This document shows, one piece after another, positions 3,127-37,354 of a DNA stretch of 46,557 bases. Under the pieces are notes generated by a model that was not told the origin of the DNA, made no database searches, and worked only from the letters and a program-made list of their open reading frames with translations. The stretch is from Verrucomicrobiia bacterium. Lineage in GTDB: Bacteria; Verrucomicrobiota; Verrucomicrobiia; Limisphaerales; UBA11358. Position numbers and translations under genes: made by a program. The stretch spans positions 1-46,557 of the forward strand of contig DATEGR010000067.1 in assembly GCA_035279985.1 (NCBI GenBank), in the 5' to 3' direction. The number at the start of each line of letters is the position of its first letter. Within the stretch, counting starts at the first letter, position 1.

Positions 3127-4377
3127 ATGAAAATTTCATCTGCAGTTTTGTCCTGGAACAGCATTCCATGGGGCATCTGGATGATCGCCGCAATTCTTAT
3201 GTTCCCGACCACCGGACCTGCGAGTGGCTCCGCTCCTCAAGCGGCGCCCAAGGTCAATCCTTCACCGTTTTATTTAGGCGCGGATATTTCCACCCTCTCG
3301 GAGGTTGATCGGCGCGGCGGAGTTTACATGGACGGCGACAAGCCCGGTGACGCGCTGGCCATTTTTATGAAAAATGGCTGGACGTGTTTTCGTTTGCGGA
3401 TTTGGGTTGATCCCCGCAATGGGGTCAATGGTCTTGAATACACGACAAAACTGGCCAAACGCATCAAGGACGCCGGTGGGACGTTCATGCTTGATTTCCA
3501 TTATTCTGACTGGTGGGCCGATCCACAGAAACAGAACAAGCCCGCCGCGTGGGCGAATCTGGATTTTGACGCGCTGGTCAGACAAACGCAGACCTACACC
3601 GCCCACGTGATCCGGACGTTGAAAGCAGCCGGCGCCACGCCGGATTTCGTACAGATCGGCAACGAAATCACTGGCGGTATGCTATGGCCGGATGGTCAAG
3701 TGAAGGTTCCGCTTTCCACGGTCAAGGTGTTTGGCGGTGACGTGACCGTAATCAAACCGCCGGAACCTTACGACGATGCCAGACAATGGGATCATCTGAT
3801 CCGTCTTTTGAAAGCCGATGCCGAAGGTGTCCGTTCAGCCACGACGCCTGAAGACCACGTCCGAATCGTTGTTCATATTGATTGCGGCGGTGACTGGCCT
3901 GTCACCAGATGGTATTTTGACCATCTTACGCAGGCCGGGGTTGACTATGATGTCATAGGCCAGAGTTATTACCCGAACTGGCATGGCACCCTGGAAAATG
4001 TCCGCGTCAACCTGCGCCATACGATTGAACGGTACCACAAGGACGTGATGATCGTCGAAACCGCATACCCGTCCCGGGATGTTCATCCCTCACCGGATGC
4101 GGCCAGAAATATGGTCTGGCCCATGACACCGGAGGGGCAGGAACGGTTCCTGGCTGATCTCATCCGGGTGGTCAAGCAAGCGCCCGAAGGGCGAGGCATC
4201 GGCGTAAACTACTGGCATCCCGAGGCCACTTTCATTCCGGGTTCCACCAATCGTTGGAGTGGACCGGATGCCAACGCGCTTTTCGATGCCAGGGGCAACC
4301 CGCTTCCCGCCATGAACGTATTAGGCCTGCAACCCGCGATGCGAACAGCGCATGCCGAAACGGTTGAACGACATTAA
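3127..4377 (+). CDS. Glycoside hydrolase family 53 (arabinogalactan endo-beta-1,4-galactanase)
   Basis: GH53 motifs FMLDFHYSDWWADPQKQNKPAAW, QIGNEITGGMLW (acid/base Glu) and MIVETAYP (nucleophile Glu). Start moved from the track's 3019 to the ATG at 3127, which follows AGGAAG and begins a signal peptide (MKISSAVLSWNSIPWGIWMIAAILMF). Confidence 0.85.
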   Translation: MKISSAVLSWNSIPWGIWMIAAILMFPTTGPASGSAPQAAPKVNPSPFYLGADISTLSEVDRRGGVYMDGDKPGDALAIFMKNGWTCFRLRIWVDPRNGVNGLEYTTKLAKRIKDAGGTFMLDFHYSDWWADPQKQNKPAAWANLDFDALVRQTQTYTAHVIRTLKAAGATPDFVQIGNEITGGMLWPDGQVKVPLSTVKVFGGDVTVIKPPEPYDDARQWDHLIRLLKADAEGVRSATTPEDHVRIVVHIDCGGDWPVTRWYFDHLTQAGVDYDVIGQSYYPNWHGTLENVRVNLRHTIERYHKDVMIVETAYPSRDVHPSPDAARNMVWPMTPEGQERFLADLIRVVKQAPEGRGIGVNYWHPEATFIPGSTNRWSGPDANALFDARGNPLPAMNVLGLQPAMRTAHAETVERH

Positions 4378-13329: not shown

Positions 13330-14094
13330 ATGAAAACTGTTTCTTTGGTTACTACTGTTATTGCTGCGTTCACACTGGCCGTTTTGCCGGCAAAAGCTCA
13401 GGTCACTTATGTGGGTCCCGGTACCGCCAATGGCGGCGGCGGAAATGGGGAGGGGATCAGCAGCGTTGTCATCAACAACACTGCCAGCAGCATCACCTTT
13501 ACCATCAATACGAGCGCGGCGCAGAGCGCATACGTTCAATATTATGTCCTGCTGCAGGATGTTGGCCAGGGTGCCAGTGGAAGCAGTGCGCTCTTTAACT
13601 CTGCGGGAGCCCTCAACGGGTGGGGTCCCAGTCTGGGCATCAGCACTGGTGAAAACGCCTTTGCTGCCACTTATAATACGGGCGCCAATTCAGCGTACTA
13701 TAGCGGTGGTGTTTGGACGATGGGTTCGGGAGCCGCCTATGATTCCGGCGGCACTGGATTTAATTTCGTCACCTTCACAAGGCCGTTAAGCAGCCTCGGA
13801 TTGAGCGTCGGTGGCAGTTTCTACTTCGACGTTGTGTCCTCCTATCCTAATGGTATCGGTCAATCCGCCTATGGTTCATTGCTCAGCAGTTATCCTGCGG
13901 AGACAGATAATGCCTACACCCCTTACAATGGCACCTCCGCTTATGACGCTGCGACAGATGCAGGGGGAGCAGCCTCGAAGTTCGGCACGGCGGCGTATAT
14001 GTACACCGTGGTACCCGAACCGGTTGCCAGCGCATTCCTTGGTTTGGGCGCGCTGCTTTTGATTGTGCGCCGAAGGGTATTCCCTGCCCGTTAG
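13330..14094 (+). CDS. PEP-CTERM sorting-domain secreted protein, function unknown
   Basis: Signal peptide MKTVSLVTTVIAAFTLAVLPAKAQ. Gly/Ser/Ala-rich body. C-terminal VPEP + hydrophobic helix + RRR (TVVPEPVASAFLGLGALLLIVRRR). Confidence 0.8.
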   Translation: MKTVSLVTTVIAAFTLAVLPAKAQVTYVGPGTANGGGGNGEGISSVVINNTASSITFTINTSAAQSAYVQYYVLLQDVGQGASGSSALFNSAGALNGWGPSLGISTGENAFAATYNTGANSAYYSGGVWTMGSGAAYDSGGTGFNFVTFTRPLSSLGLSVGGSFYFDVVSSYPNGIGQSAYGSLLSSYPAETDNAYTPYNGTSAYDAATDAGGAASKFGTAAYMYTVVPEPVASAFLGLGALLLIVRRRVFPAR

Positions 14095-24021: not shown

Positions 24022-25755
24022 ATGAATAGCGAAATCCAAATCACGCGCGGGCCGATACCGGAGAACATTTCGCCGCCACCGTCAATGGAGACGCACGGTG
24101 CGTGGCTGGAATTTCGGGGTGTCGTTCGCGGCGAGGAAAATGACCAGGCCATTTCCGCCCTGGAATATGAGGCCTATCCCGAAATGGCTGTACGCGAAAT
24201 CCGGCGGCGGCTTGAACAAATTTCATCGCGGCATCCGTGTCTCGCGGCGAAAGTCATTCATCGCGTCGGCGTCATTCCGGTGGGTGAGACGGCGATTTAC
24301 GTTGGCGTTGCGGCCAGTCACCGTGGCGAGGCCATTGCTCTGCTCGCGGAATTCATGGATCGGCTGAAGCAGGACGTGCCCATCTGGAAACGGCGGGCGT
24401 TGCCGGTCGAAGCTGAATCAAAAGAAAATCGCGCGCCCCTCGCCCCATCGCTCTCCCCGCCGGGCGGGGAGAAGGTGGCCGCAAGGCCGGCTGAGGGGAA
24501 ATCGGCGGCTAAACCTTCACGGATGTCCCTGGAGGAGGCGCTGGCTGAAATCGTTTCCCGTTGCCAGCCTCGGCCCGCGATGCGCGTGCCGCTGGCCGAG
24601 GCCTTTGGCCGTGTGCTGCGCGAAACCGTTTGTGCCTCCGAAGATTTTCCCGATTGCGACCGCTCCACCCGCGACGGTTATGCGATTTTGCAGAACGACG
24701 ATTCAGAATCTTTCCGGGTCGTGGACACGCTGCACGCCGCCGATTGGCAGCCGCGCGCGTTGAAGGCCGGCGAAACCGTCCGCGTTGCTACCGGTGCATC
24801 TCTGCCGTGCGAAAATTTACAGGTGGTCATGCAGGAAAATGTCGAACGCACGGGCGACAAAATCCGGATCGTCAGGCACGAAGAGGCTTTGAACCTGCGC
24901 CAACGCGGCGAAGATGTCAGGGCAGGGCAGCCGCTCGTGCAAACGGGCGCGCGGCTCGATGCGGGCAAACTCGCTTTGCTCGCCTCTGCCGGTTGTACTC
25001 AACCGCTGGTCAGCCCGCGTTTGCGCGTGGTTCATTTCACGACCGGCGATGAGATCATACCGCCGGAACAAACCCCCCGGCCGGGCCAGATCCGTGACAG
25101 CAATTCCATTTTGATCCGCAGCCTGCTCCAGGGATTCTCCGGCGACCTGGAACAGGCGCATTTGCCGGAAAATTTCGAACTGGCGAAATCGGCAACCGGC
25201 AATCGGCAACCGGCATTCGAAAATTCGGACCTGCTTCTGGTTTCCGGCGGCGCCAGTGTGGGCGACAAGGATTTCACGCGTTCATTGCTGGAATGGCTCG
25301 GCTTTGAAATCATTTTTTCGCAGGTCAATGTTCGTCCCGGCCGGCCATTGATTTTTGGAATCGCCGGTGGGGCGAGCGTCCCCGCTAGCCGGCTCGTCAA
25401 TAGCCTCGCCCCACCGGATAAAATCCGTATTGCCTTTGGGTTGCCTGGCAATCCCCTGTCGCATTTTGTTTGCTTTCATCTGTTCGTGGCGTCGGCTCTG
25501 GCCAGACTGGCTGGCGGCGAGGGGCCAACCTTCCAACGCGGAACGCTGGCGGCGAAGCTTGAAGACGGGCCGAATCCGCGCGAAACTCTATGGCCGGCCC
25601 GGCTGGATACGGCGGGTTTGCATCCGCTGGCCTGGGCGAGTTCCGGCGATGTGACCTGTTTGGCCGAAACCAACGCCTTGATTCTGGTGTCGGCGAATCG
25701 GGGTTCCCTTGAACCAGGCACCGAAGTCGAGTTTTTGCCGACAACCATCGAATAA
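24022..25755 (+). CDS. moaE-moeA: Fusion protein: MoaE (molybdopterin synthase catalytic subunit) + MoeA (molybdopterin molybdotransferase)
   Basis: Residues ~20-125 are MoaE-like (GAWLEFRGVVRGE ... HRVGVIPVGETAIYVGVAASHRGEA ... DVPIWKR). Residues ~125-167 form a low-complexity linker. The remainder is MoeA-like (LEEALAEI ... DCDRSTRDGYAI ... LLLVSGGASVGDKDF ... GLPGNPLS). Single uninterrupted 577-aa frame. Confidence 0.8.
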   Translation: MNSEIQITRGPIPENISPPPSMETHGAWLEFRGVVRGEENDQAISALEYEAYPEMAVREIRRRLEQISSRHPCLAAKVIHRVGVIPVGETAIYVGVAASHRGEAIALLAEFMDRLKQDVPIWKRRALPVEAESKENRAPLAPSLSPPGGEKVAARPAEGKSAAKPSRMSLEEALAEIVSRCQPRPAMRVPLAEAFGRVLRETVCASEDFPDCDRSTRDGYAILQNDDSESFRVVDTLHAADWQPRALKAGETVRVATGASLPCENLQVVMQENVERTGDKIRIVRHEEALNLRQRGEDVRAGQPLVQTGARLDAGKLALLASAGCTQPLVSPRLRVVHFTTGDEIIPPEQTPRPGQIRDSNSILIRSLLQGFSGDLEQAHLPENFELAKSATGNRQPAFENSDLLLVSGGASVGDKDFTRSLLEWLGFEIIFSQVNVRPGRPLIFGIAGGASVPASRLVNSLAPPDKIRIAFGLPGNPLSHFVCFHLFVASALARLAGGEGPTFQRGTLAAKLEDGPNPRETLWPARLDTAGLHPLAWASSGDVTCLAETNALILVSANRGSLEPGTEVEFLPTTIE

Positions 25756-25757
25756 TT

Positions 25758-25781
25758 GTAGCAGCGGACGTGAGTCCGCTC
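25758..25781. repeat. REP-like element: GTAG followed by a hairpin (AGCGGAC-GTGA-GTCCGCT)
   Basis: GTAGCAGCGGACGTGAGTCCGCTC lies 3 nt after the moaE-moeA stop. 7-bp stem with a GTGA tetraloop and no U-tract. Confidence 0.4.
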
Positions 25782-25833
25782 TAACCTTTCGACGAAGATT
25801 CGAGAATGAGCCGTTCACATCGGCTGCTGCGAA

Positions 25834-35860: not shown

Positions 35861-37354
35861 CTAACGCTTCAGTTTTCTTTCCAGAATCTCGCCGGCCAGC
35901 GCCGGATTGGCTTTGCCCTTGCTCAATTTCATGACCTGACCCTTGAGGAAATTCAGCGCGGCGGTTTTTCCGGCCTTGAAATCGGCCACCGGACCGGGAT
36001 TGGCCGCCATCGCCTCATCACAGAATTTTTCGATCGCACCGGTGTCGCTGACCTGGGCGAGGCCTTTTTCCTGAACGATCGTTGTGGGTGATTTGCCCGT
36101 GTCGAACATTTCAGCAAACACCTGTTGTGCCGTGGAACTGCTGATGGTTTTGGCTTCAACGAGATTAACCAATTCAATGAATGCCTCCGGCTTGAATTTC
36201 AAATGCTGTAGGACAGGCGTCGCGCCTGTCTCTAACTTTTCTGTTTTGCCTTGAATGGAGACAGGCGCGACGCCTGTCCTACACTCATTCGCCTCCGCCA
36301 GTTTGGCCCGCAAATTATTGATGACCCAGTTCGCCACGGCCTTCGGATTCTTCGATTGCTTTGCAATGCCTTCAAAATAATTGCCCAACGATACATCGTT
36401 CTTGAATGTCTCGGCGTCACCGGCGGGCAGGCTGTAATCTTTCATAAACCGCTGCTTGCGCGCCAGCGGCAATTCGACCGCCCGGGATTTTACGTCGGCC
36501 ACCCATTGTTCCGTCGGTTCAAACGGCATCAGGTCCGGGTCGGGGAAATAGCGGTAATCGTGCGCGAATTCCTTGGTGCGCATTTCTTCGGTCACCCCCG
36601 CCACGTCGTCCCAACGGCGCGTGGATTGAATCAGTTTGCCGCCCTTTTTCAGCACTTCAATCTGGCGCGGGATTTCGTATTCCAGCGCGCGGCGCACGCC
36701 GGAGAAACTGTTCATGTTCTTGATTTCAATCTTAGCGCCCAACTCCTTCGTGCCGACCGGGCGCACGCTCACGTTCACGTCGCAGCGCACCATGCCCTTT
36801 TCCATGTCGCCATCACTGATGTTTCCATAACGAAGAATCTCCACCAACGCATTGAGGTATGCGTAGGCCATGTCCGCGCCGCTGAGGTCGGGTTCGGAGA
36901 CAATTTCCATAAGCGGCACGCCGGCGCGGTTGAAATCCACGCCGCTGTTGCGCTCGAAATGGAAGCTCTTGCCCACGTCTTCCTCCAGATGCGCGCGGGT
37001 AATGCGGATGCGGGAGATGCCGCCGTTGAACTCGAAATCCACGTAGCCATTCGTGGTGGACGGTTGGTCGTATTGGGTGATCTGGTAATTCTTCGGCATG
37101 TCCGGATAGAAATAATTCTTCCGGTCGAACTTCGCGCGCGCGGGAATCTGACAGTTCAACAACAAACCGGTGAGCGCGGTGAGCCTCAGCGCTTCCGCGT
37201 TGGCGGCGGGCAGCACCCCCGGCAAGCCGAGACAGACGGGGCAGACGTTGGTGTTGGGCGGCGCGCCGAAGGCGTTGGCGCAGCCGCACCACATCTTCGA
37301 TTTGGTTTTAAGCTGGACGTGGGTTTCCAGGCCGATGACCGCTTCGTAATCCAT
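35861..37354 (-). CDS. gatB: Asp-tRNA(Asn)/Glu-tRNA(Gln) amidotransferase subunit B, carrying a 25-aa in-frame insertion
   Basis: YEAVIGLETHVQLKTKSKMWCGC ... NVCPVCLGLPGVLP ... RITRAHLEEDVGK ... C-terminal GatB/YqeY tail KGKANPALAGEILERKL. The insertion is described under 36208..36282. Confidence 0.92.
   Translation of the reverse strand: MDYEAVIGLETHVQLKTKSKMWCGCANAFGAPPNTNVCPVCLGLPGVLPAANAEALRLTALTGLLLNCQIPARAKFDRKNYFYPDMPKNYQITQYDQPSTTNGYVDFEFNGGISRIRITRAHLEEDVGKSFHFERNSGVDFNRAGVPLMEIVSEPDLSGADMAYAYLNALVEILRYGNISDGDMEKGMVRCDVNVSVRPVGTKELGAKIEIKNMNSFSGVRRALEYEIPRQIEVLKKGGKLIQSTRRWDDVAGVTEEMRTKEFAHDYRYFPDPDLMPFEPTEQWVADVKSRAVELPLARKQRFMKDYSLPAGDAETFKNDVSLGNYFEGIAKQSKNPKAVANWVINNLRAKLAEANECRTGVAPVSIQGKTEKLETGATPVLQHLKFKPEAFIELVNLVEAKTISSSTAQQVFAEMFDTGKSPTTIVQEKGLAQVSDTGAIEKFCDEAMAANPGPVADFKAGKTAALNFLKGQVMKLSKGKANPALAGEILERKLKR
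36208..36282. repeat. REPIN-like double palindrome (two inverted 25-nt GTAG-hairpin arms + 25-nt spacer) inside gatB
   Basis: 36208..36232 GTAGGACAGGCGTCGCGCCTGTCTC is the exact reverse complement of 36258..36282. Each arm is itself GTAG + hairpin (GACAGGCG-TCG-CGCCTGTC). Total length is 75 nt (25 codons) with no stop codon, read as CRTGVAPVSIQGKTEKLETGATPVLQ. Confidence 0.85.

Follow-up and report, generated by a model that had tools for sequence, protein, structure and literature searches.

A GTAG-Type REP Doublet Translated within a Loop of GatB in a Verrucomicrobiia Bacterium

The gatB gene of a Verrucomicrobiia bacterium carries a perfect palindrome in its reading frame. This arrangement raises the question of how such a sequence came to lie within an essential gene, and whether the gene draws any benefit from it. 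The reading that we consider very probable is that the palindrome is a GTAG-type REP doublet translated in a permissive inter-helix loop of GatB, where it contributes a passenger peptide and where the loop is a hotspot for such elements throughout the clade.

Anatomy of the palindrome and its place in gatB

The window (the whole 46,557-nt stretch of DNA that was analysed) encodes GatB on its minus strand (35861-37354; 497 aa), with the Pfam domains GatB_N (residues 6-285, E = 2.5e-112) and GatB_Yqey (residues 325-495, E = 2.1e-43). The first-pass annotation had described two exact 25-nt arms within this gene, GTAGGACAGGCGTCGCGCCTGTCTC at 36208-36232 being the exact reverse complement of 36258-36282, with a 25-nt spacer between them. 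The arms are indeed exact, and the perfect repeat extends by a further base at either edge, giving 26-nt arms (36207-36232 and 36258-36283, 100% identity) that extend to 28 nt if one mismatch is permitted. The complete doublet (36207-36283, without assigned strand) is arranged head-out (GTAG...CTAC) and corresponds to GatB residues ~358-383. Two arm matches occur in the window, versus none expected from 100 shuffles of it.

Each arm has its own hairpin behind a GTAG head, as had been claimed. REP unit 1 (36208-36230, plus strand, head-first) has an 8-bp stem (GACAGGCG/CGCCTGTC) and a 3-nt loop (TCG), is read on the gene strand as the peptide ETGATPVL, and matches exactly the arm seen most often for this family in Verrucomicrobia MAGs. 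REP unit 2 (36260-36282, minus strand, head-first) has the same 23-nt sequence, GTAGGACAGGCGTCGCGCCTGTC, and is read on the gene strand as RTGVAPVS. The GTAG head characteristic of REPs is present in both arms, and the hairpin of each (GACAGGCG-NNN-CGCCTGTC, 8 bp with a 3-nt loop) falls within the REP range of a 5-13-bp stem and a small loop. The spacer (36233-36257, without assigned strand) has gene-strand ends (TCCATTCAA... and ...AAGTTAGA) that fit the family's extended consensus TC[CT]A...[GT]T[AG]GA; its middle differs among gatB alleles (75-83% identity).

The suggestion that the RNA could form a long hairpin agrees with a predicted folding energy of -61.4 kcal/mol (z = -11.5); as single-stranded DNA the element is predicted to fold at -34.6 kcal/mol (z = -12.6). 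All Rfam matches to the element were sub-threshold, to generic long-hairpin miRNA precursors (best 34.6 bits versus a gathering score of 68), so it belongs to no known RNA family.

The in-frame, stop-free reading proposed earlier is demonstrated by the open reading frame itself (...AEANE-C-RTGVAPVS-IQGKTEKL-ETGATPVL-QH-LKFKPEAF...). The G+C-rich palindrome, whose length is divisible by three and which lacks stops in two frames out of three, is for these reasons translated as about 25 extra residues; tryptic peptides predicted to span it are TGVAPVSIQGK and LETGATPVLQHLK. The insertion site aligns to gap 355/365 of 3h0l_B and gap 363/369 of 3al0_B, and about 23 residues are absent at this point in the solved GatBs 3h0l_B, 3al0_B, and 2df4_B, which bears out the first-pass statement that the linker exceeds that of other GatBs by roughly 20-25 residues. 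The site had been placed in the connector before the YqeY-like tail; it actually lies inside the Pfam GatB_Yqey region, in a loop between predicted helices 337-357 and 390-400 of the window's GatB. An AlphaFold2 model built on 32 close homologues had low quality (mean pLDDT 53, pTM 0.33), and it was therefore used only for secondary structure near the site. Alignment to the solved GatBs, together with this low-confidence model, suggests that the insert occupies a surface loop.

The source is a short-read metagenome assembly (a k141 contig), and a palindrome in such a contig might have been created during assembly, or it might be a linker peculiar to the lineage whose symmetry is a coincidence. 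Both explanations are effectively excluded. The element occupies the identical position in gatB in L122, L208, and L211, which were assembled independently from other samples, and this rules out an artefact; 38 protein records from JGI, ENA, and NCBI show it; no chance matches to the arm were expected in the shuffled window; and more than 100 further loci carry identical arms. The version of this contig in an ENA record (L121, 99.98% identity) has the element as well.

A dispersed REP family and its transposases

A search for the arm pattern (GTAGGACAGGCGNNNCGCCTGTC) gave matches in at least 120 stretches from other genomes, the majority of them Verrucomicrobia, and these hold 223 arms and 42 head-out doublets that share the extended consensus; membership of the gatB element in this family is therefore demonstrated. 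Doublets fall into size classes of 63-94 and 130-134 nt, with the gatB copy in the short class. Relatives carry several arm copies per MAG, and one of them (L122) has two more doublets within 21.5 kb of its gatB copy, three in total there. Within the 46.5-kb window no further copies of this class were found besides the gatB doublet.

The window also contains a degenerate doublet of a second REP family (GTAGCAGCGGACGTGAGTCCGCT...TCACATCGGCTGCTGC; 25758-25831, plus strand), related to the B2 family found in the gatB loop of other genomes. It is in the classical extragenic position, 3 nt past the stop of the ORF at 24022-25755.

The association of the family with RAYTs (REP-associated tyrosine transposases) is likewise demonstrated, at four loci where a Y1_Tnp gene is flanked by the cognate arms of the family. 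In Cylindrospermum (L004) the ORF (31.1 bits) lies between inverted exact arms, and in Verrucomicrobia arm-flanked genes were found in L094 (35.7 bits), L022 (24.9 bits), and L099 (23.0 bits). Neither a motif scan nor tblastn with the Cylindrospermum RAYT detected such a gene in the window. Target-site duplications and a clear target motif were absent at 35 doublets, the sole signal in the flanks being a preferred outer C...G pair (13 of 35).

REPINs had been described in the first-pass annotation as almost always intergenic. This was overstated, since intragenic GTAG REPs have been published (PMC3733652) and the same element was found in frame in genes for ValRS, LeuRS, Mfd, alpha-2-macroglobulin, peptidase U32, and others. 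As a whole the family is depleted in long ORFs, with 43% of arms inside ORFs of at least 200 aa versus 84% of random positions (stop-to-stop frames); since this test overestimates coding in G+C-rich DNA, only ten Pfam-checked cases are claimed as genes. The gatB copy, being inside a gene, departs from the predominantly extragenic location expected of REPs.

In published REPINs two inverted REPs and their spacer form a unit, the cognate REP flanks a RAYT gene, and populations are long-lived and conserved in sequence within genomes (Bertels and Rainey 2011, PMC3116915; PMC3337134). The gatB element shares the inverted pair with spacer and, at the level of its family, the RAYT flanked by its cognate REP, whereas the classical REPINs of Pseudomonas and E. 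coli are described as extragenic and the gatB copy is translated. Also close are the GTAG REPs catalogued in 2013 by Di Nocera, De Gregorio, and Rocco, which are most numerous in the verrucomicrobium Opitutus terrae, are associated with RAYTs, and form head-to-head dimers with 20-100-bp spacers; some units lie wholly within ORFs of known proteins, where dimers encode 20-30 aa, and in Xanthomonas recB different REPs occupy about one site (PMC3733652). These repeats and the gatB element have in common the GTAG head, the short hairpin, dimers, RAYT genes, and intragenic copies. Peptides encoded by the O. terrae repeat GTAG-19 (GTGVPPV and TTGATPVL) resemble the RTGVAPVS and ETGATPVL of gatB in a comparison made through encoded peptides only, but the stem GACAGGCG differs from the one those peptides imply. 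The targets listed for GTAG REPs do not include gatB, and that study reports no case in which one loop is exchanged between seven or more families in alleles that are nearly identical (PMC3733652).

Rickettsia palindromic elements (RPEs), according to the summary of earlier work given in PMC3733652, are selfish palindromes that have inserted in frame into numerous housekeeping genes (Ogata et al. 2002 Genome Res 12:808; Claverie and Ogata 2003), with host proteins that apparently still function and a location thought to be in surface loops. The same summary assigns the intragenic RPE-4 and RPE-6 of R. conorii to the CGTC type and describes RPE-1 as much longer (PMC3733652). In-frame insertion into ORFs of functional genes is common to RPEs and the gatB element. 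RPEs, however, are not known to have a dedicated RAYT and belong to a different phylum and a reductive-genome context, and the gatB element, which is GTAG-tagged, 75-77 nt long, and verrucomicrobial, is not a member of an RPE family. Bacterial MITEs such as Correia/NEMIS, ERIC, and Nezha have terminal inverted repeats derived from insertion sequences with DDE transposases and generate target-site duplications. Like the gatB element they are small, non-autonomous, hairpin-forming, and able to be co-transcribed with genes; unlike them, the gatB element has no target-site duplication, and its ends are GTAG-headed REP hairpins. Its arm in many other genomes, the frequent head-out doublets of that arm, and the arm-flanked RAYT genes identify the gatB element as a true REP doublet (REPIN) of the GTAG type.

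Empty and filled alleles of the gatB loop

Comparison of 196 GatB sequences demonstrates orthologous empty and filled sites, as expected of a mobile element. The empty site (...AKLTESGTALADLKFKP...) is found in 39 GatBs, from more distant relatives. Alleles of the window's class (class A) in L122 and L208 consist of the empty site with exactly 75 nt (+25 aa) added, and the window allele differs from that site by +69 nt (+23 aa); the claim of a 25-codon insertion is thus right for the former two and not for the window allele itself. Alignment of orthologues confirms the insertion that had been predicted, but it is not special to this genome: class A occurs in 38 of the 196 sequences, and all 120 closest GatBs (81-89% identical, 490-543 aa in total length) have a long linker, which indicates that the insert is old and shared. 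Together with the head-out GTAG doublet, the dispersed identical arms, and the arm-flanked RAYTs, the empty-site alleles uphold the original view of a REPIN-like mobile palindrome tolerated as a loop.

The same loop accommodates at least seven unrelated palindromic families among these sequences, most of them ending in GTAG...CTAC; classes A, C, and E have an identical left junction, GAAGCNAATNNNN followed directly by GTAG. The classes are interleaved on a neighbour-joining tree. That tree, built from proteins 67-100% identical, has too low a resolution for counting replacement events, so nearest-neighbour and closest-pair statistics were used instead. One cluster of GatBs at 90% identity contains six linker classes, and at the protein level a class-D sequence (P0008) and a class-B sequence (P0013) that are 99.1% identical differ at 4 residues outside the linker. 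Identity per 50-nt segment is 84-98% in flanking DNA versus 18-40% in the segment that covers the cassette. Intermediates occur too: one allele (L209/P0067) is a chimera of a decayed class-A arm and a class-G doublet, and two others (P0014 and P0027) show the right arm alone.

Such diversity might instead reflect old allelic cassettes shuffled between strains by homologous recombination of gatB, the window allele being ancient; we regard this as possible, although rather unlikely. It would explain why identity breaks sharply at the cassette edges, why class A occurs in backgrounds 75-100% identical, and why the class-A spacers of the window, L122, and L208 are homologous and have diverged about as much as the gene. 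Every cassette must nevertheless still originate in a dispersed REP family, and classes A, B, B2, and E also occur elsewhere in genomes; the L209 chimera, with its decayed class-A arm beside an intact class-G doublet, resembles insertion into or beside a resident element. Shuffling of cassettes and repeated new insertion of REPs are not mutually exclusive. In the 1.66 Mb sampled, no arm of class C, D, F, or G turned up anywhere but in gatB, which says little about their genomic abundance because the sample was gathered for class A and gatB loci.

Passenger peptide or exapted element

In the preferred reading, a non-autonomous REPIN would have been moved to gatB by a RAYT acting on single-stranded hairpins and would have landed in a short inter-helix loop that tolerates insertions. 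The loop is probably a clade-wide hotspot in which different REP families have repeatedly displaced each other, the likeliest reasons being that it is among the few permissive places in an essential gene and that REP hairpins already in residence would serve as favoured substrates or targets of later REP/RAYT events.

The first-pass annotation also raised exaptation of the peptide, which is unsupported, since at least seven unrelated sequences fill the same loop. Viable alleles include these sequences as well as an empty one (L147), and decay of the arms is seen in L211 and L209, so the insert peptide is most probably a passenger, evolving neutrally, and not a functional module.

A different form of exaptation would have the hairpin or the added linker length kept because it benefits gatB: ribosomes might pause at the 26-bp mRNA stem, between the helical part and the tail; the stem might stabilise the mRNA or act in its processing; or a linker longer by ~20-25 aa might be needed, whatever its sequence. 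The window, L122, and L208 share their 23-nt arm cores without a single difference (100% identity), whereas fourfold sites of gatB are 58-63% identical and the spacers 75-83%. Pure neutrality does not predict this identity, which hints at selection or gene conversion acting on the arms; yet arm conservation is a property of the entire family across genomes, as expected of RAYT recognition or gene conversion and not specific to this locus. Stem codons are nearly invariant over 27 distinct class-A alleles, a count biased by the pattern that picked the arms. The stability of the RNA stem would suit a role in the mRNA, but in other alleles (L125, L126, and L127) the loop holds one REP unit, a different palindrome, or a 47-aa linker that is not palindromic, and the arms of L211 (2 substitutions) and L209 show decay. 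The 47-aa linker was considered as a decayed REPIN and rejected, no convincing residual inverted repeat being found in it.

A need for length fits the nearly constant linker of the close clade, where about 99% of sites are occupied and the anchor-to-anchor distance is 43-58 aa. Only one empty allele (L147) was found inside this clade; it is 92% identical to a filled one, which weighs against such a need. We consider exaptation in either form improbable. The close clade may nonetheless now require the added length, in which case an essential enzyme would have come to depend on selfish DNA as a spacer whose sequence is free to vary.

The element is an ordinary member of a kind already known: translated palindromic repeats in housekeeping genes were reported for Rickettsia in 2000-2003, as cited in the 2013 study of GTAG REPs, and for GTAG REPs in that study itself (PMC3733652). 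What is new here is a hotspot with a cassette-like character. Pairs of mirror peptides (RTGVAPVS/ETGATPVL, VGQASRLS/DRRDACPT, and others) flag REP-derived insertions and should not be taken for functional motifs or phylogenetic signal. For protein engineering, the GatB loop after NWVINNLRAKLAEAN accepts in nature 15-30 residues of nearly any sequence. To our knowledge, direct observations of REPINs on the move are rare. The gatB locus, with its seven or more families, chimeras, decayed arms, and empty allele in proteins 90-99% identical, is a natural system for inferring REPIN insertion, replacement, and decay. We propose, tentatively and as a possibility well short of even odds, that the loop is a landing pad at which REPIN families undergo RAYT-dependent, site-directed exchange at their shared GTAG/CTAC ends, rather than just a permissive spot struck again and again by chance. 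If so, it would offer many independent filled, exchanged, and empty alleles with junctions at the nucleotide level, such as the one common to three families (GAAGCNAATNNNN/GTAG), and the mechanism of REPIN insertion would be readable from those junctions.

The gatB palindrome

A perfect inverted repeat of 26 nt (36207-36232 / 36258-36283; 100% identity, 25 nt between the arms) is present in the window, one base longer on each side than the exact reverse complements (36208-36232 and 36258-36282) reported in the first-pass annotation; the arms extend to 28 nt with one mismatch. Each arm consists of GTAG and then its own hairpin, GACAGGCG-NNN-CGCCTGTC, and the chance expectation for arm matches in the window is none. 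RNA folding gives the transcript of the element a 26-bp stem (-61.4 kcal/mol, z = -11.5); as single-stranded DNA it folds at -34.6 kcal/mol. The host ORF (35861-37354, minus strand, 497 aa) encodes GatB (GatB_N 6-285, GatB_Yqey 325-495), and the element is indeed in frame and stop-free within it, reading ...NWVINNLRAKLAEANE-C-RTGVAPVS-IQGKTEKL-ETGATPVL-QH-LKFKPEAF.... It follows directly from the arm sequence that two of three frames are open in the forward arm (VGQASRLS and RTGVAPVS; the third begins at TAG) and all three in the reverse arm (DRRDACPT, TGATPVL, and QARRLSY).

The element is found in the ENA record of the same contig (L121) and at the identical gatB position in three independent assemblies from other samples (L122, L208, and L211), confirming that it is real and not an assembly artefact. 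Approximately 23 residues at exactly this position are absent from the solved GatBs of Aquifex, Thermotoga, and Staphylococcus. The 120 closest GatBs (81-89% identity) have 490-543 aa; more distant relatives (≤79% identity) have 473 aa and read ...NWVINNLRAKLTESGTALADLKFKP..., an empty site. The predicted 25-aa insertion holds for L122 and L208, whose DNA is the empty site plus exactly 75 nt, but the window allele has gained 69 nt, with two codons lost at the right border (..PVLQH/LKFKP versus ..PVLRLDD/LKFKP). No target-site duplication was found at the gatB element or at 35 other doublets examined, and in those 35 the outer C...G pair is no more than the extension seen most often in the family.

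A GTAG REP family and the associated transposase genes

A scan for the arm pattern GTAGGACAGGCGNNNCGCCTGTC, with one genome per species, matched at least 120 stretches, mostly from Verrucomicrobia MAGs; the matches listed also include isolate cyanobacteria (Cylindrospermum NIES-4074 and Oscillatoria PCC 10802), Acidobacteriota, Nitrospirota, Planctomycetota, and others. These listed stretches (at least 120) contain 223 arms (≤2 mismatches) and 42 head-out doublets (GTAG...CTAC). The extended consensus GTAGGACAGGCGTCGCGCCTGTC-TC[CT]A...[GT]T[AG]GA-GACAGGCGCGACGCCTGTCCTAC is common to the Verrucomicrobia doublets, which form size classes of 63-94 and 130-134 nt, the gatB copy being a typical short one. 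An ORF with the Y1_Tnp domain of REP-associated tyrosine transposases (RAYTs) lies between two inverted exact arm copies in the Cylindrospermum locus L004, and homologous arm-flanked ORFs occur in Verrucomicrobia loci L094, L099, and L022. Because arm hairpins, dispersed doublets, and arm-flanked Y1_Tnp ORFs match the features that define GTAG-type REPs, REPINs, and RAYT transposases (PMC3733652; PMC3116915, PMC3337134), the element (class A) is assigned to this type, and its proposed REPIN-like identity stands.

Further arms and a RAYT, the genomic company expected of such an element, were both found in loci of relatives (L122 carries another two class-A doublets within 21.5 kb), but the 46.5 kb of the source genome covered by the window holds neither a second class-A copy nor a RAYT. 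A second family is represented in the window by a degenerate doublet (GTAGCAGCGGACGTGAGTCCGCT ... TCACATCGGCTGCTGC; 25758-25831), which lies 3 nt downstream of the stop codon of ORF 24022-25755 and is related, with a compensated stem change, to the B2 family of other genomes' gatB loop; the source genome thus hosts at least two REP families.

The Cylindrospermum sp. NIES-4074 locus (AP018269.1) is a REPtron (L004:3613-4227; RAYT ORF 3659-4189 between inverted exact class-A arms), with a further arm-like stretch (3935-3957, translated ..VNRRDACSTE..) within that same RAYT ORF and a class-E-like REP, GTAGCGCGGGCGTCTCGCCTGCGC, just upstream. The same 20 specified arm bases (L001-L120) are found in Verrucomicrobiota, Acidobacteriota (with many copies in MAG MFD02159.bin.2.26), cyanobacteria including isolates, Nitrospirota, Atribacterota, and Planctomycetota. 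'Bifidobacteriaceae' MAGs carry the verrucomicrobial consensus, an example of possible mis-binned contigs; the multi-phylum distribution may be due to the REP/RAYT pair having spread horizontally, to convergence, or to some such contigs.

Among the window, L122, and L208, gatB identity is 80-83% overall and 58-63% at fourfold sites; the 23-nt arm cores are identical and the spacers 75-83% identical. Across 27 distinct class-A alleles, a count skewed by the sequence pattern that selected the arms, stem codons are nearly invariant, loop codons are variable, and the spacer contributes 5-14 aa of free sequence. Since arms have decayed in L211 (two substitutions) and L209, and arm conservation is family-wide across genomes, this conservation is as compatible with RAYT recognition, or with short-tract conversion by copies elsewhere, as with a function specific to gatB, if not more so.

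REPs within reading frames

GTAG REPs wholly within ORFs were reported by Di Nocera et al. 2013 (PMC3733652): their number is highest in Opitutus terrae, a verrucomicrobium, more than half are dimers or groups encoding 20-30 aa, host genes include DNA-repair genes, RNA helicases, and tRNA synthetases, flexible linkers were suggested as sites, and Xanthomonas recB has different REPs at about the same site. The O. terrae family GTAG-19 encodes GTGVPPV and TTGATPVL, close to the gatB-element peptides when compared as peptides; GatB is absent from the table of that paper. With the older precedent of Rickettsia palindromic elements (Ogata 2002; Claverie and Ogata 2003, as cited in PMC3733652), this makes the window element one of an already-known sort. 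The class-A family is depleted in long ORFs, and in other Verrucomicrobia it occurs in frame in ValRS, LeuRS, Mfd/TRCF, alpha-2-macroglobulin, peptidase U32, a Reg_prop sensor, and DUF5107/TPR proteins. The intra-ORF REPs of PMC3733652 and the ValRS, LeuRS, and Mfd copies show that the earlier view of REPINs as almost always intergenic is overstated.

One ValRS ORF (L022:97-2340; VFJO01000280.1, Verrucomicrobia bacterium Bin_73_16) remains in frame across a class-A REP, then a complete RAYT (Y1_Tnp, 24.9 bits; HUH motif PNHVHAVF, Tyr motif YVETNAARAGL), then more REPs, after which the ValRS motif WTQDSDVLDTWFSS resumes. A direct repeat, VGQASRLSPENDHGRDARATF, brackets the insertion (~245 aa), and position 2340 is the last of the contig; an essential synthetase may carry a transposase gene within its frame, or the contig may be disrupted or chimeric. 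In L124, a called gene of 53 aa (13913-14074) that weakly matches GatB_Yqey lies 2.4 kb downstream of intact gatB and adjoins an rve-type transposase; it may be a gatB fragment left by rearrangement.

In GatB, a low-confidence structure model places the insert in a loop between predicted helices (337-357 and 390-400), which is also a gap in alignments to solved GatB structures, in keeping with the suggestion that it is tolerated there. The best-supported reading of the sequence is that a REPIN entered this permissive inter-helix loop and would be translated as a passenger within GatB.

One loop, many elements

Linkers of close GatB relatives, assigned by protein sequence patterns, sort into discrete, unrelated classes, most of which at the DNA level (four gatB alleles for class A) are different palindromic elements bounded by GTAG...CTAC. 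The insert is not confined to this genome: all 120 closest GatBs have long linkers, and among 196 GatBs class A (arm GTAGGACAGGCG...; peptides RTGVAPVS / ETGATPVL) accounts for 38, B (GTAGGAGCCGA...GGCTC; SRSRGNEA / SLLTSAPT) for 41, C (GTAGCCGCCGA...GGCGG; RRGNEAD / PPPHVGG) for 9, D (a single REP, GTAGGGCGGGCTGTCCTCAGCCCGCC; AEDSPPYQ) for 7, E (GTAGGGCAGGCGTCTCGCCTGC, differing from A by a compensated stem pair) for 14, F (a hairpin without the GTAG head; SPSDGERV) for 9, and G (GTAGGGACG...; ..RVPT) for 7; 20 are non-palindromic (47 aa) and 39 empty. Class B2 has GTAGCAGCCGACGTGAGTCGGCTC. The left junction GAAGCNAATNNNN/GTAG is common to classes A, C, and E, and the right flank (x)ACGCTGGCCGACCTCAAATTC to all classes.

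The non-palindromic linker (L126, L144, L151, L152, L161, L163, L177, and L181) is conserved, 19-20 aa longer than the empty site, and has both borders as in REP-filled alleles (EANEK/R..AEQxAxG..L-TLADL); it may descend from an ancient insert that has decayed, or from an insertion of an unrelated kind. Inside the cassette, class-B alleles L146 and L138 also encode a short repeat-like peptide (GEKSEIRNPKSEI / GEKSEIRGAKSEV), a hint that another small element is nested within the REP doublet.

Class agrees with that of the nearest non-identical neighbour in only 109 of 186 cases. The window allele's own nearest relatives are of classes B, C, and D; the empty allele L147 shares 92% identity with one of class A; 4 residues outside the linker distinguish GatB proteins P0008 (class D) and P0013 (class B); and one 90%-identity cluster holds classes A, A', B2, C, E, and G. 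Per 50-nt window, DNA identity between such relatives is 84-98% in both flanks versus 18-40% across the cassette. Intermediates include L209/P0067, in which an intact G doublet comes after a decayed A arm, and P0014 and P0027, with the right A arm only. We found no earlier description of at least seven REP families replacing one another in a single loop of an essential gene, in alleles that are 90-99% identical.

This pattern may be no more than what selection for a single tolerant site has left visible; linker length itself may be required, and allelic recombination between strains may contribute to the diversity. Exchange may be site-directed, through RAYT action at the shared GTAG/CTAC ends or with the resident hairpin as target. 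The best-supported interpretation of these alleles is that the gatB loop is a probable hotspot, occupied, exchanged, and occasionally emptied in many lineages.
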